A DNA stretch of 64,000 bases from Escherichia coli. GTDB taxonomy: Bacteria > Pseudomonadota > Gammaproteobacteria > Enterobacterales > Enterobacteriaceae. Below, in pieces: positions 26,057 to 43,149 of the stretch. How positions within the stretch are numbered: position 1 is the first letter of the stretch; each line of letters begins with the position of its first letter. The DNA is taken from NCBI RefSeq assembly GCF_003790525.1, contig NZ_CP033635.1; one strand, written 5' to 3'. The position numbers and the translations under genes were made by a program. Below the pieces are notes generated by a model. The model made no database searches, was not told the DNA's origin, and was given only the letters and a program-made list of their open reading frames with translations.

Positions 26057-27250
26057 ATGCCACTTACTGTTCGACAAATTGAGTCGGCTAAACCTGCTGA
26101 CAAGGATTACAAACTTTCTGACGGTCAGGGCCTTTATCTTCTTGTCAAAAAATCCGGTGCCCGTTACTGGAATCTGAAGTACCGGTTTGCCGGTAAGGAA
26201 AAGAAACTGGTGATTGGTGTCTATCCTGACATATCACTGGCTCAGGCTCGTCAGAAGCGGGATGAAGCACGTAAACTTCTGGCTGAAGGTAAAGATCCGT
26301 CGTATGAAAAACAGGCGCGAAAACTTGCCATCAGGGAAAGTATGGCCTGCACATTTCGCACCATTGCAGAGGAGCTGCTTACTCATATGGCACGTCGATG
26401 GACAACAGGTTACCAGGCAGACCAGCGTGCAAGACTTGAAAATCATGTTTTCCCTGCTCTTGGAAACCGTCCTGTGACCGGGATCCGCCCCATGGAAATA
26501 CTGAACGTCCTGAGGACTATAGAAGAACAGGGAAAACTTGAAGCACTGCGTAAAACACGCCAGCTCTGTGCGCAGGTTTTTGATTATGCCATAGCAACAG
26601 GGCGTGCAACCGTTAATCCGGCATCGACACTCAGCGGGGTACTGCTTCCTCCTGAAAAACAACAGCGCAGGACGCTTTCTGAAGAACAGATAGGAGCTTT
26701 CATGTATCAGATAACGGCTTCCGGAAATCTGATGTCGCTGGCAACGCGGATGCTGGTTCTGACCGCTGTTCGCACCGGAGAACTGCGACTGGCAACCTGG
26801 GACGAAATTAATTTCACGGAGGCCCTGTGGGTTATTCCGAAAGAAAGAATGAAAATGCGACGACCGCACGTTGTGCCGCTTTCACGGCAGGTACTGGCGT
26901 TACTGGAGGAGATAAAAACACGCACTGAATCGCGTAATTCCGCCTTTATTATTCCTGGTGCATTCAGAAAAGATCTCCCGCGAAACCGCAAGTGTATCAA
27001 TGAATTCCTTGAGCAGTCAGGCTGGCATGCCCTGACAACAGCCCACGGATTTCGTCATACCTTCAGCACCATTCTCCATGACCATGATTTCAGCTCAGCC
27101 TGGATTGAACTCCAGCTTGCTCATGTTGATAAAAACGTCATGCGTGGCACTTATAACCATGCGCAATATCTGGATGGACGTCGTGAAATGATGCAGTGGT
27201 ACGCTGATTACATTGATTCACTTATGGAGAAAAACGTAAAAACGAAATAA
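26057..27250 (+). CDS. P4-type tyrosine integrase
   Basis: 397 aa with a DUF4102-type N-terminus (MPLTVRQIESAKPADKDYKLSDGQGLYLLVKKSGARYWNLKYRF). The C-terminal catalytic region carries HGFRHTF ... LAH ... Y. Confidence 0.93.
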   Translation: MPLTVRQIESAKPADKDYKLSDGQGLYLLVKKSGARYWNLKYRFAGKEKKLVIGVYPDISLAQARQKRDEARKLLAEGKDPSYEKQARKLAIRESMACTFRTIAEELLTHMARRWTTGYQADQRARLENHVFPALGNRPVTGIRPMEILNVLRTIEEQGKLEALRKTRQLCAQVFDYAIATGRATVNPASTLSGVLLPPEKQQRRTLSEEQIGAFMYQITASGNLMSLATRMLVLTAVRTGELRLATWDEINFTEALWVIPKERMKMRRPHVVPLSRQVLALLEEIKTRTESRNSAFIIPGAFRKDLPRNRKCINEFLEQSGWHALTTAHGFRHTFSTILHDHDFSSAWIELQLAHVDKNVMRGTYNHAQYLDGRREMMQWYADYIDSLMEKNVKTK

Positions 27251-28773: not shown

Positions 28774-29154
28774 TCAACCGAGGTCGCTGCAATAAACCAT
28801 CGCGCTTTGATTCCCCCGATGAAGAGGTGACTGGCAGCGACTTCCTGAGCGACGACTTGTCTTTCCATCAATAGCGACTACCTGAGAAGATAAAACAGGA
28901 AGGACTTCTGAACCCCATCGCCGGAACGCAGCTTCAAACTGCTCAGGGACAATCAGCCCAAAAAGACGGGCGAATGTATCATGGGAAGGTATGCCATTTT
29001 TTAGAGGTAAAAAACTGGCGGAGCCACTCAATGCGTTGCCTGCCCAGAGCTCAATTTCCTGAAAATTATCCGCACCGACCAGCACACCACAAACGGCAAT
29101 GGTCAATGTATCAACCAGAGTGTGCCTGACTTGTCCAGGGCTGACAGGGATCAT
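28774..29154 (-). pseudogene. ISAs1-family (H-repeat) transposase, N-terminal fragment
   Basis: VRHTLVDTLTIAVCGVLVGADNFQEIELWAGN...GIPSHDTFARLF...VVAIDGKTSRRS matches the N-terminal associated domain of ISAs1/YhhI-type transposases. The DDE domain is missing. Confidence 0.75.
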
Positions 29155-29281
29155 GTATTGAGATGAATATATCGGTAACCGGCGGTATATGAGACATAAT
29201 ATATCCCTTTGATAAAAAAGGTTATGTTGACATATTTATCCTGCATGTCACGTATCATTATTTTTCATGCGATTGCCCTGC

Positions 29282-29400
29282 GGTTACCACCGCTCACAGT
29301 TAGTAAAGGACTGGGCGGAAGTGGTCAATATAAGGTTGCATTACCTTCCTCCTTATAGTCCGAATCTGAATCCGATTGAACGGATGTGGAAAAATGCTGC
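29282..29400 (+). pseudogene. IS630-family transposase, C-terminal fragment
   Basis: Frame reads ...QLVKDWAEVVNIRLHYLPPYSPNLNPIERMWKNAA*. This is the conserved LPPYSP-LNPIE motif around the catalytic E of IS630/Tc1 transposases. Confidence 0.75.
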
Positions 29401-29716
29401 TTAATAGTATTGATGTTCATCTTTATGCCTCTAAAAGAAAGCATAAGATCACAACAGGCTCAGCAGGTCAATCACTCTATTTTTGTTCAAAAAACGTTCA
29501 TGATCTTGCCCTACCCAATTTTGTGGGTAAGGATATGCGATGAAATTCTCCTTGCAGTTTAATACAACCTTTCCATATTAAGCGGCAGTATTACCTGCCA
29601 GTCAGGATAATTTTACACCTAATGTTAGTTAAAATTTGTGCAACTTGAAACAATAATACTACAGTATCCACTATCGTCAGCACACCTCAAATACTATTTT
29701 TTATGAAACGTTTATT

Positions 29717-30373
29717 TTATAAATCATTATCAATCAAACTCAGGAATGTATCTCTGGCATAATTACCAACGATGTTGGTTGTTATCGCATCAAGACTACC
29801 ACCAACGATTCCTCCTACAACAGGAACAAACTTTGACATATTAATAACACCAGTAGCACCTGTTTTTGTAAGCAGTCTGAAACCGACTGCCTTATTTATC
29901 TTTACAATAATATCTTTACTAATACATCTAATTGCATTTGTTGTCAACTTTTGTCCTATCTGAATTCCTGCTTCCTTCAAAATATCTTTCGCAGCATTAC
30001 CTACAAGACAGGTATAAACAATAGTTCTGACTTTATCATCACGAATATCCTGGCCACACATGATCGCAATAGATGCAACCATCCTGACCTGAATGAAAAG
30101 GACACTTGAAATATTGGTCGGTATAGTTACTGGTAATGTAATAATTCCTCCAAGACCAGTAAGAAAACCTGATGTGGCTGACTTGGTATTTTGCCATCGA
30201 ATAAGGCTATTTATCTGTTCTTTTAAACTACTACCCGTTTTCAGATAACTTTCCGCAAGACTATGTGCCGTATCAATTCCTGGGATACCAATACCATCGA
30301 TGGATTTTTCATAAGCGTAATCCAGAAATTTTATGATTTTTGATGGCGTGAGAATATTTTCATTATCAGTCAT
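29717..30373 (-). CDS. EcsC-family protein
   Basis: ATG at 30373 (MTDNENIL...). It shows EcsC-like features: SLIRWQNTKSATSGFLTGLGGIITLPVTIPTNISSVLFIQVRMVASIA and a Gly-rich C-terminal segment VPVVGGIVGGSLDA. AT-rich. Confidence 0.65.
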   Translation of the reverse strand: MTDNENILTPSKIIKFLDYAYEKSIDGIGIPGIDTAHSLAESYLKTGSSLKEQINSLIRWQNTKSATSGFLTGLGGIITLPVTIPTNISSVLFIQVRMVASIAIMCGQDIRDDKVRTIVYTCLVGNAAKDILKEAGIQIGQKLTTNAIRCISKDIIVKINKAVGFRLLTKTGATGVINMSKFVPVVGGIVGGSLDAITTNIVGNYARDTFLSLIDNDL

Positions 30374-30464
30374 ACAACAAAACACCTAAAAATTTCACGA
30401 TCACTTTCTAAAAACTATCTCCGACAGATATCGGAACACCAGTATTATCACCAATTAAATAATA

Positions 30465-30656
30465 TTATTTTTTGAGAAACAATTGTATTGCTCTGGCAAA
30501 AAGATTTTCTGTAATTGTAGCCTTACGTTTATAAATAACTTTCTCTCCACACACAGGACATTCATAAAATCCTGCTGTACAATTCATATGAATAATAGTT
30601 TTACTCCATTGACAATTTGTACAGATAAATGTAATGGGTGGACAGGGAAAAATCAT
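30465..30656 (-). CDS. small zinc-ribbon protein (63 aa)
   Basis: From ATG 30656: MIFPCPPITFICTNCQWSKTIIHMNCTAGFYECPVCGEKV..., with two CxxC knuckles. The track ORF begins 10 codons earlier at a GTG. It lies 91 nt upstream of the EcsC gene. Confidence 0.5.
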   Translation of the reverse strand: MIFPCPPITFICTNCQWSKTIIHMNCTAGFYECPVCGEKVIYKRKATITENLFARAIQLFLKK

Positions 30657-30746
30657 TGGCTCACACTCTCGATATATAAATAACACTTACAGGGACATGT
30701 AAATATTTTCGATTTATCCCTATAAAAATAACTTCACCTCCAGTAA

Positions 30747-31100
30747 TCAATTCAGTTCTGTAAGACGATCGATTATTTTACGTAGTTCATCTGCAGAATC
30801 ACATGTATCCAGTGAAATTTTTATTCTAAAATTCTTTAACCAATTAGCAGCCTCCTGATCTTCACGCCATAAACGCTCCCCGCTCCAATCCCCCCTAAAA
30901 CATAGAGCAGCAATAGCCAATCCTCTGCATGCTGGCCGATTATGCTCAGATGTATTATTTTGGTTATAAAAATCGTTAATTCTTTCTACCGGAGATGATT
31001 TTATTTTATCCCACACATTGAAATTAGCTTTTTTCATCGTTTCAGCAGCAGCATTAGAAGCAAGCTTACCGAATCCCATTATAGCATCCCAAAATCCCAT
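30747..31100 (-). CDS. hypothetical protein (117 aa)
   Basis: ORF preceded by AAGGTGA. No recognisable family. AT-rich, and on the same strand as its neighbours. Confidence 0.5.
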   Translation of the reverse strand: MGFWDAIMGFGKLASNAAAETMKKANFNVWDKIKSSPVERINDFYNQNNTSEHNRPACRGLAIAALCFRGDWSGERLWREDQEAANWLKNFRIKISLDTCDSADELRKIIDRLTELN

Positions 31101-31136
31101 ATATCACCTTATGCTATATAATATCTAAATGAGTAT

Positions 31137-31226
31137 CTAATCTTTTAGAACCACTATTTGGACAATGGTTTTACGCCACTTACATCTGGTACAAATGAAT
31201 GTAACCGGGGGCTGAGGAAGTGCCAT
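31137..31226 (-). pseudogene. truncated paralog of the zinc-ribbon ORF (29 codons)
   Basis: MALPQPPVTFICTRCKWRKTIVQIVVLKD* aligns with the first ~23 codons of the 30465-30656 product (MIFPCPPITFICTNCQWSKTIIH). The second CxxC knuckle is absent. Confidence 0.4.
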
Positions 31227-31312
31227 GAAGGTACGTGTCTGTTGTATTAAACTATCAAATCAGACCACACGCTGCGATTTTGAATTTAACAACGTGTAGT
31301 CAGATATTACAT

Positions 31313-32062
31313 TCAGAAGCTGTATGTAGCACCTAACGTAAATTCGTTACTTCTGACATCAACAGAGGATTTATATGTATCCTGCCCGTCTTCATACGTC
31401 AGGGTTGAATCACCTGCATCAAGATAGCGATAAGCAAGGTCAAGACTGAAATCCGGGGTGACCTCATATTTCACGCCAACACCAAGGCTCCATGCGAAAT
31501 TGTTATCATATCCCGAGTAATGTAATGAAGAAGCATCACTTACTTCACCTGATTTATTCCAGGAGGTATCGGTGTATGTTGCCTTATGATGTACCCGCGC
31601 ATAACCCAGTCCGGCTGATACCCACGGAGTGAAAGCACTGCTGTTTCTGAAATCATAATACGTGTTCACCATCAGGGTATTCACGCTGAGCCTGTTTTGT
31701 GTGTCTTCCTTCCAACCATTATCTCCAGACGGGGACTCCCATGTATCCAGTGGATAGCGGGAATTCGCAGAGCCGCGACCATAGAATTCAACTTCCGTGC
31801 GTACAGGGACATTGTAGTGCTGATAAAAGTCGTATCCCACCGCAAGGCCAGCACCAAAAACCGTATCGCTCTTGTCACCGCCTTTATACTTATAAACATC
31901 ATCCCCAAAGTCCTGACTAAAGCGCTGATTATCCTGAGTGATAACAGATGCACCAGCCTTACCCGTGATATAGAAACCGGTTTTATCCGCATCTGCCAGC
32001 GTCAGCGTTGAAAACGTACCGGTAAGCGCAGCTACCGCAGTGAGTGCCAGTAACTTTTTCAC
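31313..32062 (-). CDS. outer-membrane beta-barrel protein (OmpA-like/Opa-type, possibly Tia/Hek-like)
   Basis: 249 aa with a signal peptide MKKLLALTAVAALTGTFSTLTLA. It has alternating amphipathic strands, aromatic girdles and a C-terminal ...TLGATYSF. Confidence 0.7.
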   Translation of the reverse strand: MKKLLALTAVAALTGTFSTLTLADADKTGFYITGKAGASVITQDNQRFSQDFGDDVYKYKGGDKSDTVFGAGLAVGYDFYQHYNVPVRTEVEFYGRGSANSRYPLDTWESPSGDNGWKEDTQNRLSVNTLMVNTYYDFRNSSAFTPWVSAGLGYARVHHKATYTDTSWNKSGEVSDASSLHYSGYDNNFAWSLGVGVKYEVTPDFSLDLAYRYLDAGDSTLTYEDGQDTYKSSVDVRSNEFTLGATYSF

Positions 32063-32377
32063 AATCCACCTCTCCTGATGTTTCCTTCAGACATATGAAT
32101 TTGTCCAATTTTAAGACGGATTTCTCATTGGTAAAATGAATTGTACAGATCGTATCGATCGACAAAGTCGATCGTTAAGCAGAAAAAAGATTTATCGTCA
32201 GCGAAGATTTGTTTATGGAAATGACTGAAAAAACGGGTTAAAAAACAGACTGTTCTGTCCATGTGAAACGGGAAGTGACGGGATAAGACGTTATGTGAGG
32301 ATTGTTACGGGAAATGCTGTTTTACGTTGTTAAAATGTAACTCCGCAATGAAACTATCCCCTGTGGAGGTCCTGTAA

Positions 32378-32731
32378 ATGAACAAAGCACTCTCTTCCAT
32401 TCTGCTCATCTTCGGTATCTGTGCATCATCACTGGCCGCTGAAAAAAACAGAACCGTCAGTTTTCCACGATGTGAAGTACAGGAAGCATCAGCTGTTGCA
32501 GCCAGCGTCAAACGGGACTATCTCCAGAAACAGGTATTTCAGTGGAAAGATGATCAGGAAATTCTCGGTCAGCAGCGTCCCGTTGTCTGGGTGAATCTTC
32601 GTGAGCCGGTAAATAAAGGTGATAATGTCATCACAGTGCATCTCACTGCCCGTGGAAAGAAAGCAGATATTCAGTATCGTGTGCGCGTTGACTGTAAGAA
32701 CGGAAGTGCTACCTGGCAACGCCAGGGATGA
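32378..32731 (+). CDS. YebF-family secreted protein (island paralog)
   Basis: 117 aa with a signal peptide. [39 protein letters not shown]...[21 protein letters not shown] parallels YebF ([22 protein letters not shown]...ADIHYQVSVDCKAG). Confidence 0.7.
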   Translation: [117 protein letters not shown]

Positions 32732-32777
32732 ACGGGTGAAGTTGAATACAGAGCCCGAACGAACGGGCTCTCCATAC

Positions 32778-33350
32778 TCATCGTATATAACTGAATGCGG
32801 TGATGACGTGTTTCACCCCCGCCACGCGACTGGCGATATCAGCAGCAGCCTGTCCTTCCTTCTCTGTAACTCTCCCCATAAGAAAGACTTCACCATTCTC
32901 CGTCAGTACCTTTACATCTGACAGTTTCACCCTGCTGCTCTTCAGTAACTGTGCCCGGATTTTTGTGGTCAGCCACGCATCAGTAGCTGTTTTATCAGCC
33001 CGAAGTGGTTTTCCCGTCCTTATTTCATTCCATACCTGCACAGTCCCCTCAACACCATCTGCAATCTGACGGGCTTTTTCACCTGCACTACGGTCTGGTG
33101 CCTGCCCTGTCAGCAGTACAGTGCCCTGGTATGCTGTGACGATGATTCGCGCATCCCCCCTGAGTTGTGAGTCCTTCGACAGCGCACGGCTGACCCTTGC
33201 TTCCAGAATTTCATCATCAATCTGCGTTCCCGCACTTCGGGGGTCCACTGACACTTTAGTACCCACAGCAGCCGTACCGACCAGCGCAGCGGCAACACAA
33301 CCCTGTAACAGCAACAGAGTCGAAAGAAAAGGCAGAAACCAGCGTTGCAT
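32778..33350 (-). CDS. dual-BON-domain lipoprotein, DolP(YraP)/OsmY-like
   Basis: ATG 33350 is preceded by GGAGG. Lipobox LLLQGC. Two BON-type segments (...IIVTAYQGTVLLTGQAP... and ...VKVLTENGEVFLMGRVT...). Confidence 0.75.
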   Translation of the reverse strand: MQRWFLPFLSTLLLLQGCVAAALVGTAAVGTKVSVDPRSAGTQIDDEILEARVSRALSKDSQLRGDARIIVTAYQGTVLLTGQAPDRSAGEKARQIADGVEGTVQVWNEIRTGKPLRADKTATDAWLTTKIRAQLLKSSRVKLSDVKVLTENGEVFLMGRVTEKEGQAAADIASRVAGVKHVITAFSYIR

Positions 33351-33673
33351 GGCAGAATCCTCCACGGTCTGATATCCGGAATTTCGCAGTATGACGGCAG
33401 GAATCAGCCATCACAGATACCACAAGCTTCAGAGAGTAACGAAAACGTTAAAGGAAACGGAAGTGCCTGAATGTAAAGAACGGGGAACCACACAGGGTAT
33501 GGACAAACATAATAACAATAACAGGATGAAAATATTGAATAAAAAATAAAAACCGAGACATCATCATTTGCAGTAATAGCCACCTCCTTACCGAAAAGTG
33601 TGAGTTGCCGGACATTTTTTAAACGCATGATAAGGTCTGATGATACAGTCACCCTGCAACCAGGAGGTACATC

Positions 33674-33967
33674 ATGCGTATACGTGTTTTTGGTTACCGG
33701 CACTGCCCTTCAGTCCATCGCATCATGCATCACGCAACGCGAATCCCCGATGAAATGGAACCGGATGTTGTGTTTATTGATGTCGCGAAGCACAGTGTGA
33801 CGCTGCGGGATATGGCTGACCGTGCAGGCTGCCCGGTGGATAACTTCCCGTGTGTGTTTGTTGATGATGTCTATCTGGAGCCCCTCCACCAGAACCGGGC
33901 AAACCGCACTTTACATACTGCTGAATATTTATTACCGGATATGGACAATCGCTTTCATTCGGGATAA
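33674..33967 (+). CDS. hypothetical protein, weak glutaredoxin-like pattern
   Basis: 97 aa, GGAGG 7 nt upstream. IRVFGYRHCPSV...FPCVFVDDVYL resembles the beta-alpha-beta start and the VPxIFI strand of Grx/NrdH, but with a single Cys. The assignment is tentative. Confidence 0.4.
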   Translation: MRIRVFGYRHCPSVHRIMHHATRIPDEMEPDVVFIDVAKHSVTLRDMADRAGCPVDNFPCVFVDDVYLEPLHQNRANRTLHTAEYLLPDMDNRFHSG

Positions 33968-34091
33968 AAAATACTGCGCGTTCCTGGTTTATTTTGCGTT
34001 GCTGTCATGACGTGTTTGCCTTCATTGCCGGGATCGCGCACTTTTTGTTATAACTCCCCGGAGGACACTGTCTGTAATCAGATGGAAACCT

Positions 34092-34526
34092 TTATCTCAG
34101 TGATGTCCTGGTTAATACAGAATACTGCCCCGGACCAAGTAACATAATGGCAATCCCCCCCATGAAATACAGCATTTCATTTTCAAGCCCCCACGCCCCT
34201 ACTTCAGTCAGTGTGAAAAACTTCCCTGTTCCGACCAGAAGCGTGGCAACAATCAGTGTCAGCGCATAAATCAGAGCAGCAGGTCTGGTAAATATCCCAA
34301 GAATGATAAGTACCGGAGCCACGATTTCACCAATATACACACCATAGGCAATAAATCCTGGCAAACCAGCATCCTGCAACATTGATATAATCCAGTTGAC
34401 ACCGTGCTCTATTTTGGCCACACCATGGAACAGCATCAATATACCAAATGTCAGTCTCAGCAACAGAAGACCTGTATCCGGGTAGTCTGTCAGTCTGGTA
34501 AAGAACATATTTATTCTTGCTGGCAT
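34092..34526 (-). CDS. DoxX-family inner-membrane protein
   Basis: 144 aa with four TM segments. GLLLLRLTFGILMLFHGVAK is typical of DoxX/YphA. An alternative start at MFFTRL (34508) is possible. Confidence 0.75.
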   Translation of the reverse strand: MPARINMFFTRLTDYPDTGLLLLRLTFGILMLFHGVAKIEHGVNWIISMLQDAGLPGFIAYGVYIGEIVAPVLIILGIFTRPAALIYALTLIVATLLVGTGKFFTLTEVGAWGLENEMLYFMGGIAIMLLGPGQYSVLTRTSLR

Positions 34527-35039
34527 AAAAAACCTCGTTAAACGATAACAGATAATGAAGAAACTATTATCGTTGAGTCGACACCATCAATTGACCAGAT
34601 ATTTCTGACATTCATAATCAAAAAATTTGACAAAACTGTAAACGTTCGCTTTTTATACCAACACAGAATCCACTCAGTCACACAACCTGTATGCGTCATT
34701 TCCTGCTGTTATTTAAAAAATTTCTCACGTAACAGACATTTCAAAAAAACACTAAAAAATACCAGAACAATTAAGATAATATTACGATCAAATAAGTAAA
34801 AGTCTTTTGTCTGTTATTTTTATTTTCTGTGATTACTGTCATTCTTTCACCACTTTAATTAACATCGCATAATAATCCGGGAGGTGGATAAGATATGAAA
34901 ATTAACTATCCTTTACTGGCGCTGGCGTTGAATTATTACCTGTAGAGCTCACTCCGGATGAGCAGAAAGAACCGATGGTGGCTCTTACTCCACTTTTATC
35001 CACTCCTTCACACAGCACTGTCAGTGCAGGTGCCTGAAA

Positions 35040-35310
35040 GATCTCGTTCCGTCACGGTAAAATGACGCTGGAAAATTCTTCACCAGAACTGCTCACTGTG
35101 TTAATTCGTGAACTGACCTGGGGGGAATGCGTGGTACCCTGCTGTACGGACTAATCGGAACCTGTCGGTTGAACGGTATCGATCCGGAAGCGTATCTGCG
35201 CCATATCCTGAACGTTCTACCGGAATGGCCTTCCTGCATGGTTGATGAACTCCTGCCATGGAATATGGTGCTCCCATTGGGGTAAGCGTCAATACGGCGT
35301 TCGCTTAACT
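35040..35310 (+). mobile_element. IS66-family remnant (TnpC C-terminus plus terminal repeat)
   Basis: Reads ...LIGTCRLNGIDPEAYLRHILNVLPEWPSCMVDELLPWNMVLPLG*, followed by GTAAGCGTC...CGCTTAA-like end sequence. Upstream frames are broken. Confidence 0.7.
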
Positions 35311-35410
35311 TAACACTTACTTTCAAAGCCTGATATCTGTCCTACGCTTTTCCTCAATACCACATCGCCAGCAGGAAACAACCTAATGCCTGTGTTGGGG
35401 TCTGAATTAC

Positions 35411-35470
35411 TAATGATAATCATTTGCATTGTGTATAGCTTATGCTATAAAACATAGCCGTTGCTATGTT
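35411..35470 (+). promoter_or_regulatory. sitA control region: Fur box plus two MntR boxes
   Basis: TAATGATAATCATTTGCAT (35411-35429) is Fur-box-like. TATAGC-ttat-GCTATA (35434-35449) and AACATAGC-cgtt-GCTATGTT (35451-35470) are perfect MntR-type palindromes. Confidence 0.75.
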
Positions 35471-35503
35471 TGTTCTAATTTTACTCACTATAGGTACTGA
35501 ATT

Positions 35504-36418
35504 ATGCACTCAATAAAAAAAGTAACCATGCTCCTGGGGTGCCTCGCCCTCACCTGCTCGATAGCATTTCAGGCGAGTGCAACTGAAAAATTCAAGGTCA
35601 TTACAACATTTACCATCATCGCAGATATGGCCAAAAACGTGGCTGGAGATGCTGCAGAAGTCTCATCCATAACCAGGCCCGGTGCAGAAATTCATGAGTA
35701 TCAGCCTACCCCTGGCGATATTAAACGTGCGCAGGGGGCACAACTGATTCTCGCCAACGGTATGAATCTGGAATTGTGGTTCCAGCGCTTTTACCAGCAT
35801 CTCAGTGGGGTTCCAGAAGTGATTGTCTCTTCGGGTGTGACGCCAGTAGGGATCACCGAAGGCCCCTACGAGGGAAAACCTAACCCTCATGCCTGGATGT
35901 CGCCAGATAATGCTTTGATTTACGTCGATAATATTCGTGATGCGTTGATAAAATACGATCCGGCAAATGCAAAAACATACCAACGTAATGCCGATACTTA
36001 TAAAGCCAAGATTACCCAAACCCTTGCCCCCCTGCGTAAGCAGATTGCTGAACTCCCTGAGAATAAAAGATGGATGGTCACCAGTGAAGGGGCTTTTTCT
36101 TATCTCGCACGCGATTTGGGGCTAAAAGAGCTTTATCTGTGGCCGATAAATGCCGATCAACAAGGAACACCCCAGCAGGTACGTAAAGTGGTTGATATAG
36201 TGAAGAAAAATAATATCCCAGCGGTATTTAGTGAGAGTACGGTTTCCGATAAACCAGCGCGTCAGGTTGCGCGTGAAACCGGCGCACACTACGGCGGTGT
36301 GCTCTATGTCGATTCCCTGAGCACAGAAAACGGCCCGGTACCTACGTATATCGACCTTCTGAAGGTTACTACCAGTACGCTGGTGCAGGGAATTAAAGCC
36401 GGGAAAAGGGAGAAGTAA
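35504..36418 (+). CDS. sitA: Mn/Fe ABC transporter substrate-binding protein SitA (YfeA family)
   Basis: 304 aa with a signal peptide. KFKVITTFTIIADMAKNVAGD...PGAEIHEYQPTP...NPHAWMSP...TSEGAFSYLA is the cluster A-I metal SBP signature, recognised as SitA. Confidence 0.88.
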   Translation: MHSIKKVTMLLGCLALTCSIAFQASATEKFKVITTFTIIADMAKNVAGDAAEVSSITRPGAEIHEYQPTPGDIKRAQGAQLILANGMNLELWFQRFYQHLSGVPEVIVSSGVTPVGITEGPYEGKPNPHAWMSPDNALIYVDNIRDALIKYDPANAKTYQRNADTYKAKITQTLAPLRKQIAELPENKRWMVTSEGAFSYLARDLGLKELYLWPINADQQGTPQQVRKVVDIVKKNNIPAVFSESTVSDKPARQVARETGAHYGGVLYVDSLSTENGPVPTYIDLLKVTTSTLVQGIKAGKREK

Positions 36419-36555
36419 TGATGCAATCTGCGGGTATTGTCGTTAATGGCGTTACTGTCACCTGGCGAAACGGGCAGAAAGCACTGCGCGATGCATCCTT
36501 CACAGTACCAGGCGGATCTATTGCCGCTCTGCTTGGGGTAAACGGTTCCGGTGAA
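36418..36555 (+). pseudogene. sitB: sitB, 5' fragment (truncated at about codon 46)
   Basis: TAATG overlap with sitA. MMQSAGIVVNGVTVTWRNGQKALRDASFTVPGGSIAALLGVNGSG matches SitB up to the Walker A GxxGxG, then diverges. sitC and sitD are absent. Confidence 0.8.
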
Positions 36556-36756
36556 ATCGTCTTGACACGTTTCTGGGCTCGTCATCAGCGGTTGTTGCGA
36601 ATGATCGCCGCCCTGCGATGGTTGATTTATTTTATTGCGCCCCGGCGTCTGCCTTGCCAGGTACCGGAGGCGGGCTCTGAAGGACTGAGTAGGGTGAGCG
36701 CGTCAGGCCGCGAAGTACTGACACGGGAGTTTGTGGCAGGCAGTGAAGTCCTGACC

Positions 36757-40485: not shown

Positions 40486-41211
40486 CTGTACCGGGCAATG
40501 GGTAATACCGGTCACAACCGGTAACCCCAGAGACAATGCAACTGTTTTTAACGCAATATACTGGCCGGATGTATCACCCCGGGCAGCCTGAAAACACCTT
40601 TCCACCCGGCATTGTCCGTCAGCACTTATCACCCGCCATGTCTGTTGCAATAAATCCACCCGTTGCGAACATTCTTCATCAACCGTGGCACTGACCCGTG
40701 GATGGCAAATGCTCGTCTGGCTGAGCAGCAACAGGCATCGCATTGTTGCTCCTCCATGTTGTTCCCGCAACCAGCGTAATACCACCGGTGGTGCTGGACT
40801 GGCCGTGTGATTACGTTCAGTAATACGCTCGTGCACCTGTCGGTAAAAGGAAGTACAGAATGCATGAATCTGTTGTCCGTTGATGTTTCCTTCTGCCGAA
40901 TGGAGTGTGAAGTGGACGGCCAGCAGACGCGGCCAGTGATCCACCGCCTGCTGAATAAAACGCCGGATTTCCACCGGCTCTGAAAGTACGGTTTCGGTTA
41001 TTTGCACGATTTGATCCCCTTGAATGTTGCTGAACCGGTGTCGGTACGCAGGAAAGCACGCCGAGACCGGTACGATGCCTGTTACAGCGAAGAACGAGGA
41101 ATGACAGACGGGGGCAGCAGGTCGCCAGCACCAGGGACAGGGCTGATTTCCACAATACCAACGCTGGTATTTTGCACATTGCCAGCGTACCGGCATTACA
41201 ACACGTTTCAT
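40474..41211 (-). CDS. inovirus-Gp2-like (YagK/YfjJ family) protein, paralog 1
   Basis: The segment ...EIRRFIQQAVDHWPRLLAVHFTLHSAEG...FYRQVHERI... is YfjJ/YagK-like. The ATG at 41211 forms an ATGA overlap with the alpA stop. The Cys/Trp-rich first ~60 codons and the C-terminus next to the IS256 remnant make both ends uncertain. Confidence 0.55.
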   Translation of the reverse strand: MKRVVMPVRWQCAKYQRWYCGNQPCPWCWRPAAPVCHSSFFAVTGIVPVSACFPAYRHRFSNIQGDQIVQITETVLSEPVEIRRFIQQAVDHWPRLLAVHFTLHSAEGNINGQQIHAFCTSFYRQVHERITERNHTASPAPPVVLRWLREQHGGATMRCLLLLSQTSICHPRVSATVDEECSQRVDLLQQTWRVISADGQCRVERCFQAARGDTSGQYIALKTVALSLGLPVVTGITHCPVQRCT

Positions 41212-41444
41212 GCTGCTGCCCCTCGTGATGCCTCGATTCGTTGCTGCATCCACTGCTCCACTTCACTTTTGTACCAGCGGCTGCTGCGCCCCAGTTTGAT
41301 GGGTTTAGGGAAATGGCCTTCACTGATCAGCTTGTAAAACCATTTGTCGGTCATACCAGTGAAGCTGGTGATGTAGTTCATGTCGATCAGGGGATCGTCG
41401 GCACGCAGCAATACGCTGTCGTGACCTGTCATTGAGGTCAACAT
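41208..41444 (-). CDS. alpA: AlpA-family transcriptional regulator / excisionase-like
   Basis: 78 aa. ITSFTGMTDKWFYKLISEGHFPKPIKLGRSSRWYKSEVEQWM is the AlpA/phage_AlpA helix-turn-helix signature. The start could be an internal Met. Confidence 0.85.
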   Translation of the reverse strand: MLTSMTGHDSVLLRADDPLIDMNYITSFTGMTDKWFYKLISEGHFPKPIKLGRSSRWYKSEVEQWMQQRIEASRGAAA

Positions 41445-41512
41445 GGTCAGAATGTCCTCTGTGAGATTTATGAATGTTGGGCAAATGCGGGTGAATCTGC
41501 TGAGCTGAGCTT

Positions 41513-42115
41513 TCAGAGCTGGCCTGCTACGGGATACCAGGGATTACCGGCGAGGTAACGGGCTTCCGGATCGCGCACACCACGACGATCGCGGGCGAAA
41601 TCACTGAACGCCCATATCAGCTCTTTGAGTCTCTCTTCGCAGTCCGGTGAACAACTGTCCAGCACCACATCCCGGGTTATCTGTTTCTGGTACGGTGCCG
41701 CTTCACCCGGTGAGGCGAAGCCCAGCACGTTGCTCCAGGCATCCAGAATCAGCCGATCCAGTTCAGGGCCGTCGAAATACTCCTGCCTGACGCACAGCAC
41801 CACGTGGTATTCCGGCTTTTCAGGATGACGTGTCAGGAGCCAGCAGAGGTCACGTCCGGGGGTTGCATTCATCAGGTCACTGACGGTTTCAATAAAGGCC
41901 ATACCGAACCAGGTCCTGCGGCTGCTGAAGGTATTATCGGGTTCCCACGGCAGACGAAGCAGGATACGTCGTATCCGGGAGCCGGACTGCTCACGCAGCG
42001 CACGGTCAAGAACGCCAATAACTTTGTTCTGATACGAGGGCCAGAAGGGTGCCATGCTGTCGTCGAAATAAGAGAAAGTATTCACAGGATATGCTCCGTT
42101 ATGCGCAGCCCACAA
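41513..42115 (-). CDS. inovirus-Gp2-like (YagK/YfjJ family) protein, paralog 2
   Basis: 200 aa. ...RRILLRLPWEPD...YHVVLCVRQEYF... follows the same pattern as paralogs 1 and 3. Confidence 0.6.
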   Translation of the reverse strand: MWAAHNGAYPVNTFSYFDDSMAPFWPSYQNKVIGVLDRALREQSGSRIRRILLRLPWEPDNTFSSRRTWFGMAFIETVSDLMNATPGRDLCWLLTRHPEKPEYHVVLCVRQEYFDGPELDRLILDAWSNVLGFASPGEAAPYQKQITRDVVLDSCSPDCEERLKELIWAFSDFARDRRGVRDPEARYLAGNPWYPVAGQL

Positions 42116-42417
42116 CGCGTCCTGCCCGGGGATGGATGGGCTGACGGGTTACAGGCTGCGGATGAGGTTGATGGAACAGGTGAAGAACCGACGCTGAGCG
42201 GGAATATCAGGGAAGAACATTCAGGGTGAATGAACTCCGTTGACTTCGGTTCACATCATTAAGCAGGGCGGTAAGGTTTTACCGACAGATTGTTTCCGGG
42301 TGCGGAAGCAGATACCGCTGCTGACTTCATGACGGGTTATCAGAATACGGGATAAGGGCATTGGCTGACTCTCTTACCGTGGCATAAGTTCAGGTACCGG
42401 ATACCGTTTTACCGACC

Positions 42418-43149
42418 TCACCTGCCATCCAGCAAACGCCCCGGCCCACGGCTGCAACCATAATTACGCTGACCGGAACCATTATGCTGCTTCGTTTTAT
42501 TTTTCACGAGATAACTGGCTCTGTTCCTGGCTTTCTGCATCGCTGCCACATCACCACGCTTGATCCAGAGAACAGCGGCTTCACCCGGCTTTTTTTCTGA
42601 AGCCTTCCTGGTATCAGAACATCCACCCGACAAAGGCGTGTCATCGGAAGAAGGGCGAGCATCAGACGATGCTGGTTTACGAAAAGGCTTCCACCTGGAA
42701 AAATGGACCAGGCCATCGCCTTGCCAGGGCTCAAGATGCAGAGCGCTGCACCATGCCTCCTGGATCATCGCCGCCAGCGAAGACGGTTCGCTGAAATCCC
42801 CGAGCGAGCACCAGGTATCTTTGTTGAGCAGCAATATCACGTGATAATGTTTCCTGTTTTCTTCCTCTCCGAACTCCCGGCACCAGAAATAACGCAGGCT
42901 GGTTGCATGCACACGCTGACTGGCACGTCGCTTATGCTGCTGGTAAGCCTGGATTTTGGCTTTCAGGGATTCGAAAAAACGAGAAATCACCGCTGAATCC
43001 GGATCGGGATCCATGATGGTGACAGGCATATACTCAGGGAAACGTAAATCCACCCGGATTAACGAGACGGCACGGTGCTGCGACAGGGCACTGTCGAGAA
43101 GGCTGTCAAAACGGGATAACCAGTAAGCATTGTGTATTGGTTGATTCAT
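42418..43149 (-). CDS. inovirus-Gp2-like (YagK/YfjJ family) protein, paralog 3
   Basis: 243 aa. ...VSLIRVDLRFPEY...RYFWCREFGEEENRKHYHVILLLNKD... is the family core. Confidence 0.7.
   Translation of the reverse strand: MNQPIHNAYWLSRFDSLLDSALSQHRAVSLIRVDLRFPEYMPVTIMDPDPDSAVISRFFESLKAKIQAYQQHKRRASQRVHATSLRYFWCREFGEEENRKHYHVILLLNKDTWCSLGDFSEPSSLAAMIQEAWCSALHLEPWQGDGLVHFSRWKPFRKPASSDARPSSDDTPLSGGCSDTRKASEKKPGEAAVLWIKRGDVAAMQKARNRASYLVKNKTKQHNGSGQRNYGCSRGPGRLLDGR

Follow-up and report, generated by a model that had tools for sequence, protein, structure and literature searches.

Divergent second copies of DolP and YebF in a mosaic, decaying island of Escherichia coli

The locus

The stretch of DNA considered here, 64,000 nucleotides of Escherichia coli sequence referred to as the window, is matched identically by the chromosome (NZ_CP158308.1) of CM2, an E. 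coli strain isolated from chicken in China, where window position x corresponds to record position 1694061 + x. It carries four adjacent genes, yebF2, dolP2, grxL and a gene of the DoxX family (Table 1), and all four of the open reading frames (ORFs) that an initial annotation had proposed are present. That annotation viewed them as an envelope module on a horizontally acquired island. The island is borne out by a tyrosine integrase gene (26057-27250, plus strand) directly after lptG, and by the abundance of insertion sequence (IS) fragments across the region. No tRNA gene is found in the window, and the attachment site of the island is therefore not a tRNA. As for the genes themselves, we put at roughly 0.7 the probability that they represent a patchwork of separately acquired accessory genes in a large, IS-riddled and decaying island next to lptG in bird-associated E. 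coli, with each gene most likely acting alone.

The genes lie on alternating strands, in the order plus, minus, plus, minus, and thus form no operon but, presumably, separate transcription units, each with a good ribosome-binding site. The products of yebF2, dolP2 and the DoxX gene had been assigned to the YebF, dual-BON lipoprotein and DoxX families, and all three assignments exceed curated profile thresholds. The description of the genes as AT-rich does not stand, the G+C content of the yebF2, dolP2, grxL and DoxX ORFs being 48.0, 52.9, 50.3 and 44.8%, respectively, compared with 50.4% over the window as a whole; AT-richness is confined to the spacers and the neighbours on the left. Between divergent alleles, the ratio of non-synonymous to synonymous substitution rates (dN/dS) is 0.08-0.14 for all four genes, indicating that all of them are, or were, real genes under constraint.

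Table 1. Features of the four-gene region, in window coordinates
Feature	Position	Strand	Basis
yebF2, 117-aa secreted YebF-family paralogue	32378..32731	+	Pfam and NCBIfam profiles
dolP2, 190-aa dual-BON outer-membrane lipoprotein, divergent DolP/YraP paralogue	32778..33350	-	Profiles, PDB match
grxL, 97-aa ORF, putative cytoplasmic glutaredoxin 1 remnant	33674..33967	+	Family profile against PDB 1EGO
DoxX-family inner-membrane protein, 144 aa, Hafnia/Yersinia type	34092..34526	-	Pfam DoxX
Outer-membrane beta-barrel protein, 249 aa	31313..32062	-	Pfam OMP_b-brl, E = 5e-19
8-bp inverted repeat AGAGCCCG-AACGAA-CGGGCTCT	32750..32771	n/a	Read from the sequence
Divergent spacer dolP2/grxL, AT-rich	33351..33673	n/a	G+C 41.6% over 33366-33673

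Independent histories of the four genes

The 2.5 kb block that holds the four genes occurs in 16 of 5426 complete E. coli genomes, always on the chromosome, and ten of these carriers are from poultry and two from a raptor. The distributions of the components differ, with dolP2 present in 19 of the complete genomes and yebF2-type genes, a lineage found only on islands, in 51, with as many as five places in one genome and frequently in the form of pseudogenes. In the case of the DoxX gene, a common E. coli island variant with 88% identity is found singly, flanked by IS elements, in more than 1,700 data blocks, and homology of the window to other islands covers only positions 34086-34535, a segment the size of the gene. 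No copy of the block was found outside E. coli. An origin on plasmids was considered and rejected, as megablast returned nothing and nearly all of the tblastn matches were chromosomes mislabelled as plasmids.

A break within the block is seen in the island of E. coli SCU-115, where homology jumps from window position 32781 to 33966 and a 1.18 kb segment with dolP2 and grxL (32782-33965) is precisely absent. These two genes, with the spacer between them, thus form a separable block. Taken together with the alternating strands, the different distributions and the gene-sized DoxX homology, this absence argues that the genes have independent histories.

The core yebF and dolP genes are located elsewhere in E. 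coli, as the initial annotation stated, and are found in 5425 and 5424, respectively, of the 5426 complete genomes. For the carriers of the block, the K-12 dolP and yebF sequences were appended to the 2.5 kb query and the matching places per record were recounted, and the number rose by exactly two in all 16 genomes (from 3 to 5 in CM2). Because every carrier retains both core genes, yebF2 and dolP2 are true second copies, and the idea that they are displaced orthologues is ruled out.

dolP2 and a mobile DolP lineage

DolP2 scores 279.4 bits against the NCBIfam model PRK11023 (NF008247; cutoff 184), matches the Pfam BON domain in two stretches, and matches the structure of E. coli DolP (PDB 7A2D) with E = 1.3e-62. 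The longest ORF (32778-33365, minus strand) begins with a GTG codon at 33365; the start is most likely the ATG codon at 33350, which is preceded by the ribosome-binding site GGAGGA and yields a protein of 190 aa, as in RefSeq. The lipobox LLQGC is followed by CVAAA, with a valine at position +2 identical to that of K-12. Lipoproteins that lack aspartate at +2 are sorted to the outer membrane, and sorting of DolP2 to the outer membrane is predicted on this basis.

The protein is only about 61-62% identical to K-12 DolP, in line with the divergence that had been claimed for it. It nevertheless retains, in an alignment with K-12, the equivalents of W127 and L137 in the alpha-1 helix of the second BON domain (BON2), two residues essential for phospholipid binding and function, and complementation of an E. 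coli dolP mutant has been shown for DolPs as remote as that of Neisseria (PMC7806268). For these reasons DolP2 is very probably a competent DolP. Among the other lipid-contacting or buttressing residues named in the same study, 4 of 11 differ (G120 to D, S123 to A, N124 to T, and S134 to A). The likeness to E. coli DolP (YraP) thus extends to length, lipobox, flexible linker, two BON domains and the phospholipid-binding tryptophan and leucine, whereas several micelle-contacting residues are changed and dolP2 is an extra copy on an island. By analogy with the core protein, DolP2 would be a working, two-BON lipoprotein sorted by the Lol system to the outer membrane, where it would use the alpha-1 helix of BON2 to bind anionic phospholipid and would support both BamA and the integrity of the membrane. 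The dN/dS ratio of dolP2 is 0.13-0.14.

In contrast to the core gene at the lpoA-yraN-diaA-dolP locus, dolP2 lies between yebF2 and grxL on the island, and a motif scan found no sigmaE-type motif near it. Because of its position off the core locus and the absence of such a motif, dolP2 is regarded as a paralogue or xenologue rather than an orthologue. The promoters of both dolP2 and grxL presumably lie within the spacer that separates these genes, yet no sigma-70 consensus was recognised inside it, the scan count being no higher than in shuffled sequence. Rfam gave no matches in 29000-36500.

In a neighbour-joining tree, DolP2 forms a long branch joined to a clade of DolPs borne on integrative and conjugative elements (ICEs), and falls outside all of the core proteins from Enterobacteriaceae, Yersinia and Serratia. 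Those of Serratia and Yersinia are 73-77% identical to E. coli DolP, compared with 61% for DolP2. Its nearest relatives, at 66-69% identity, are cargo genes on intact ICEs of the SPI-7/PFGI-1 type (ICEEc2-like) at tRNA-Phe, where dolP occupies a slot between a DUF465 gene and genes for a UvrD helicase, TraI relaxase and integrase. ICEEc2, and pheV as a hotspot of ICE insertion, have been described previously (PMC11537424). In both settings dolP is an extra copy on a mobile element with a YadA-like adhesin gene nearby; the ICEs are intact, whereas dolP2 of the window sits in a decayed island next to yebF2 and grxL, and synonymous divergence between the two groups is saturated. With respect to features of such ICEs, the surroundings of the four genes hold no transfer genes, and what is present is limited to homologues of ICE cargo. 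dolP2 most likely belongs to a mobile DolP lineage whose other members travel on pheV-inserted elements.

No donor lineage can be named: DolP2 has no relatives above 69% identity beyond its own E. coli cluster, and YebF2 is about equidistant (47-55% identity) from its core counterparts in Escherichia, Citrobacter, Enterobacter, Salmonella and Kosakonia. A search of contigs for a YebF2 donor gave no match with YebF2 alone, and with an alignment as query it recovered only core YebFs at 36-55% identity.

yebF2

YebF2 scores 93.5 bits against Pfam PF13995 (cutoff 27) and 115.2 bits against the NCBIfam model YebF_not_Cmi (NF041240; cutoff 110), and it matches E. coli YebF (PDB 2LQV) with E = 1.3e-27. 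It aligns with K-12 YebF over its full length at 51% identity, a divergence that again agrees with the earlier claim. An N-terminal signal peptide, judged together with its cleavage site by eye rather than by a predictor, ends SLAA|E, and two cysteines align with the cysteine pair of the K-12 protein. The likeness to YebF therefore includes signal peptide, cysteine pair, full-length alignment and a pass on the YebF-not-Cmi model, the difference being that YebF2 is an extra copy from the island-only lineage. The gene has a GGAGG ribosome-binding site and a dN/dS ratio of 0.14 against another island allele.

YebF2 would be a Sec-exported, disulfide-bonded paralogue of YebF, presumably released through porins as YebF is. 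In the islands of E. coli LH50-c and Ch1, yebF2 is frameshifted in an A-run just past the signal-peptide codons (window 32440-32450; locus L056, 3099-3229), which reads GAAAAAAAC in the window versus GATAAAAAAAAG in LH50-c and Ch1.

Another yebF2-type gene of CM2 is located outside the window but on the same large island (locus L004, 27395-27748; CM2 record 1774394-1774747). Its product has 80% protein identity, but the gene, which has an internal stop, carries a pseudogene annotation; genes for an S6 serine-protease autotransporter and a truncated phosphoethanolamine transferase are close by.

grxL and the DoxX gene

The third gene had been described as a 97-aa ORF with a degenerate glutaredoxin-like pattern. 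The pattern survives as a match of the family profile to E. coli glutaredoxin 1 (GrxA, PDB 1EGO), collinear with residues 1-67 (E = 2e-5), whereas the length of 97 aa is that of a frameshifted allele of an 83-aa protein. grxL falls below the curated thresholds (Pfam PF00462, 16.4 bits against 22.9; NCBIfam GrxA NF008401, 32.2 against 84), and the glutaredoxin-like signal is weak but real. After residue 67, glutaredoxin 1 continues with the glutathione-binding GG motif and a C-terminal helix, neither of which is seen in grxL, where the match stops. The active-site Cys-Pro is at the same position in both proteins and the proline of the TVP motif is kept in grxL (as FP), but CPYC is replaced by CPSV, which is invariant among the E. 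coli variants. A distant variant has CNLT, and neither CPYC nor CGFS is present. The AlphaFold model, with a mean confidence score (pLDDT) of 49.6, is too poor for a fold search; its secondary-structure order, beta-alpha-beta-alpha-beta, fits a thioredoxin fold.

In DNA alignments with the allele of E. coli CFSAN061770 and with a copy from an ICE remnant, the window gene is seen to lack one base between 33885 and 33886. As a result, residues 72-97, the last 26, are out of frame; the ancestral stop codon lies at 33922-33924 and the ancestral product is 83 aa long, with a proline-rich C-terminus, ...PLPPxPGxPxxTxC, that ends in a cysteine and is conserved down to 58% identity. The dN/dS ratio over codons 1-71 is 0.12. 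In its ancestral form grxL would be an 83-aa protein derived from glutaredoxin 1, with the nucleophilic cysteine alone retained, and the product in the window, with a C-terminus corrupted by the frameshift, is probably impaired.

The family is close to being an orphan, with 14 clusters among 5.8 billion proteins, and all matches with a named source are from E. coli. A profile search of 1.84 billion representative proteins gave seven matches, one of them marginal and a true CPTC glutaredoxin. In 115 genomes, the 83-aa form lies between iha and the ICE transfer-gene remnants TIGR03757/TIGR03756. The most distant relative, the 83-aa CNLT variant at 58% identity, comes from a metagenome assembly of 43.7% G+C (locus L059, 1391-6047), where it adjoins a gene for a catalase-peroxidase; one for a Cu,Zn superoxide dismutase is some 3.9 kb distant. 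These neighbours hint at a link of the family with oxidative stress. An island of E. coli XDL that holds the 83-aa form (locus L016, 7666-8925) also bears an additional amidase gene, amiC, a further case of a core envelope gene duplicated on an E. coli island.

The DoxX protein scores 70.4 bits against Pfam PF07681 (cutoff 23.6) and shares 70-76% identity with proteins encoded on the chromosomes of Hafnia, Yersinia and Pectobacterium. It shares the DoxX domain and small size with the Hafnia and Yersinia proteins and with the E. coli proteins YqjF and YphA. Identity to K-12 YqjF and YphA is only 31 and 30%, over partial alignments, and the DoxX gene is therefore not a second copy of a core gene, so that the claim of duplicated core functions holds for yebF2 and dolP2 and not here. 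In Hafnia, the gene is accompanied by genes for a LysR regulator and a protein of metallo-beta-lactamase fold, partners that the island gene lacks. The product is a foreign inner-membrane DoxX protein, probably tied to quinone or thiol redox. Neither it nor the glutaredoxin-like protein is an envelope biogenesis factor.

Envelope-themed cargo of the island

The 249-aa beta-barrel gene is the conserved left-hand neighbour of yebF2 and is divergently transcribed from it. Only a 5' fragment of the gene is found upstream of the yebF2-type genes in SCU-115, Ch1 and LH50-c, and in CFSAN061770 it is interrupted by an IS21 element. Further left, one and the same site of the island holds either an ecf operon or a set comprising ISAs1, a gene for an EcsC-family protein and a 117-aa ORF. 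In the window, the latter set and the intact beta-barrel gene occupy the place of the ecf operon. In Ch1 and LH50-c, by contrast, a tetratricopeptide-repeat gene is followed at this site by the ecf operon and then by the beta-barrel fragment, yebF2 and dolP2; in LH50-c all four genes come after the operon in one run, and the operon is also next to yebF2 in SCU-115.

The island operon, of the type that modifies lipopolysaccharide and lipid A, encodes a deacetylase, a GT4 glycosyltransferase, a CptA-like transferase and LpxM, and it is 83% identical at the nucleotide level, over 5 kb, to the ecf operon of plasmid pO157 (deacetylase, glycosyltransferase, CptA-like transferase and LpxM/MsbB2). The latter is proposed to modify lipopolysaccharide structure (reviewed in PMC2811833). 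A homologue of the plasmid operon thus lies directly upstream of yebF2-type genes in sister islands; the plasmid operons, however, have no yebF2, the homology stops before yebF2, and the operon is absent from the window.

Island variants also hold genes for SodC, cytochrome b562, an outer-membrane beta-barrel protein or a YadA-like adhesin. In the window, a gene for a YadA-like adhesin and one for a sigma-factor-like helix-turn-helix protein lie at 40631-42512 on the minus strand, about 7.8 kb from dolP2. The same pair adjoins dolP2 in E. coli GF4, and YadA-like genes are found next to the ICE-borne dolP copies, so that the pairing of DolP with a trimeric autotransporter is recurrent. The island cargo is enriched for envelope and periplasmic functions, and to this extent the theme perceived in the initial annotation is real. 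It is the theme of a patchwork and not of a unit, given the alternating strands, the separate distributions and the breaks in homology at gene boundaries.

Other features of the region

The inverted repeat falls within the 46-nt spacer that separates the convergent yebF2 and dolP2 genes. No T-run follows the repeat on either strand, and a terminator scan made no call there. Searches for a phage or defence role of the four genes led to rejection of the idea, as PHROGs gave only a generic match to DoxX and PADLOC gave none. The EcsC-family protein (29717-30385, minus strand), encoded two genes to the left of the beta-barrel gene, does match PADLOC PDC-S29 almost end to end (E = 6e-86), and may be a single-gene anti-phage defence candidate on the island.

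Decay is extensive around the four genes, where IS fragments, incomplete transposase genes and part of a toxin-antitoxin system occur and sitB is truncated. At 35504-36564 (plus strand), sitA is intact but sitB is cut after about 50 codons by IS66-related fragments, whereas CFSAN061770 retains an intact sitABC downstream of the same block.

Patchwork, remnants or module

Four points weigh against an assembly of separately acquired, individually acting genes. The gene order is the same in all 16 carriers, which also fits weak selection for the set, or recent common descent. The envelope and periplasmic theme, seen in ecf, the beta-barrel protein, SodC, cytochrome b562 and the YadA-like adhesin, exceeds what would be expected of a random patchwork, so that some grouping by function may be present. 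The low dN/dS ratios reflect a long-term history and not current function in CM2, and no sigma-70 or sigmaE promoter is recognisable upstream of dolP2.

One alternative is that the four genes are functionless remnants, intact only for lack of time and making no contribution to the CM2 envelope. Such an explanation would account for the decayed surroundings and the absence of a promoter from the scan, as well as for losses that are specific to lineages: grxL is frameshifted in the CM2 type, the CFSAN061770 type has a frameshifted DoxX gene and a beta-barrel gene split by IS21, and LH50-c and Ch1 have a frameshift in yebF2. However, dolP2 is full-length in every carrier examined but GF4, where IS1414 cuts its 3' end, and is the most consistently intact member of the group. 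Synonymous changes exceed non-synonymous changes even between close alleles (5:2 and 8:4 for dolP2, 5:1 and 6:5 for yebF2), and over deeper divergence dN/dS is as low as noted above, with strong ribosome-binding sites in place. On balance, we consider it unlikely that the genes are remnants without function.

A second alternative, close to the initial annotation, is that the genes form a coherent, horizontally acquired module for envelope remodelling or stress, in which four proteins jointly alter outer-membrane biogenesis or permeability, perhaps with the beta-barrel protein or the ecf products. The identical order in 16 genomes would be accounted for in this way, as would the single run of ecf operon, yebF2, dolP2, grxL and DoxX gene in LH50-c, the adjacency of ecf and yebF2 in Ch1 and SCU-115, and the fact that the ecf cluster is a true homologue of that on pO157. 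What makes a module quite improbable is that the genes share no promoter, that each is found elsewhere without the others, and that homology breaks at gene boundaries. In addition, plasmid-borne ecf operons occur without yebF2, the members have been inactivated independently in different lineages, and on ICEs the cargo slots that homologues of DolP2 and of grxL occupy are not the same.

Finally, the view that YebF2 is a Cmi-type immunity protein against a colicin M-like toxin, prompted by the fold common to Cmi and YebF and by a plasmid yebF-like gene that was called a colicin immunity gene (PMC3893438), can be set aside as very remote, since YebF2 passes the model that separates YebF from Cmi, is 51% identical to YebF over its whole length, bears a YebF-like signal peptide whereas Cmi is anchored in the inner membrane (PMC4661593), and has no ColM-like gene annotated among its neighbours.

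The separately acquired patchwork is thus the reading that we prefer. Under it, DolP2 and YebF2 would be expressed and would act much like their core counterparts, and a benefit to the host may arise from, for example, an additional dosage of DolP outside sigmaE control that buffers stress from island-encoded outer-membrane proteins.

Implications

The one mildly new point to emerge is a mobile DolP lineage common to ICEs and to the island; the rest is an ordinary mosaic, and no established view is changed. A bolder extension is that E. coli mobile elements keep their own DolP lineage, comprising the pheV ICE copies and the island copy, as a portable factor for outer-membrane homeostasis that escapes sigmaE control and buffers stress on the membrane and on the machinery for beta-barrel assembly (BAM) caused by their own cargo, such as YadA-like adhesins, autotransporters, TonB-dependent receptors, beta-barrel proteins and conjugation machinery. 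We offer this as a tentative and doubtful proposal; if it were true, dolP2 would be an adaptive helper gene and not a passenger.

DolP, a virulence-associated factor for outer-membrane integrity, has been put forward as a drug target, and YebF is in wide use as a carrier for secretion. A few, mostly poultry-associated E. coli bear divergent extra copies of both. In such strains, a second copy of dolP could mask the outcome of studies with dolP knock-outs or inhibitors, and the divergent alleles reveal residues of DolP and YebF that tolerate change. The occurrence of a DolP lineage on ICEs and islands hints, moreover, that mobile elements may bring with them a means of buffering envelope stress.

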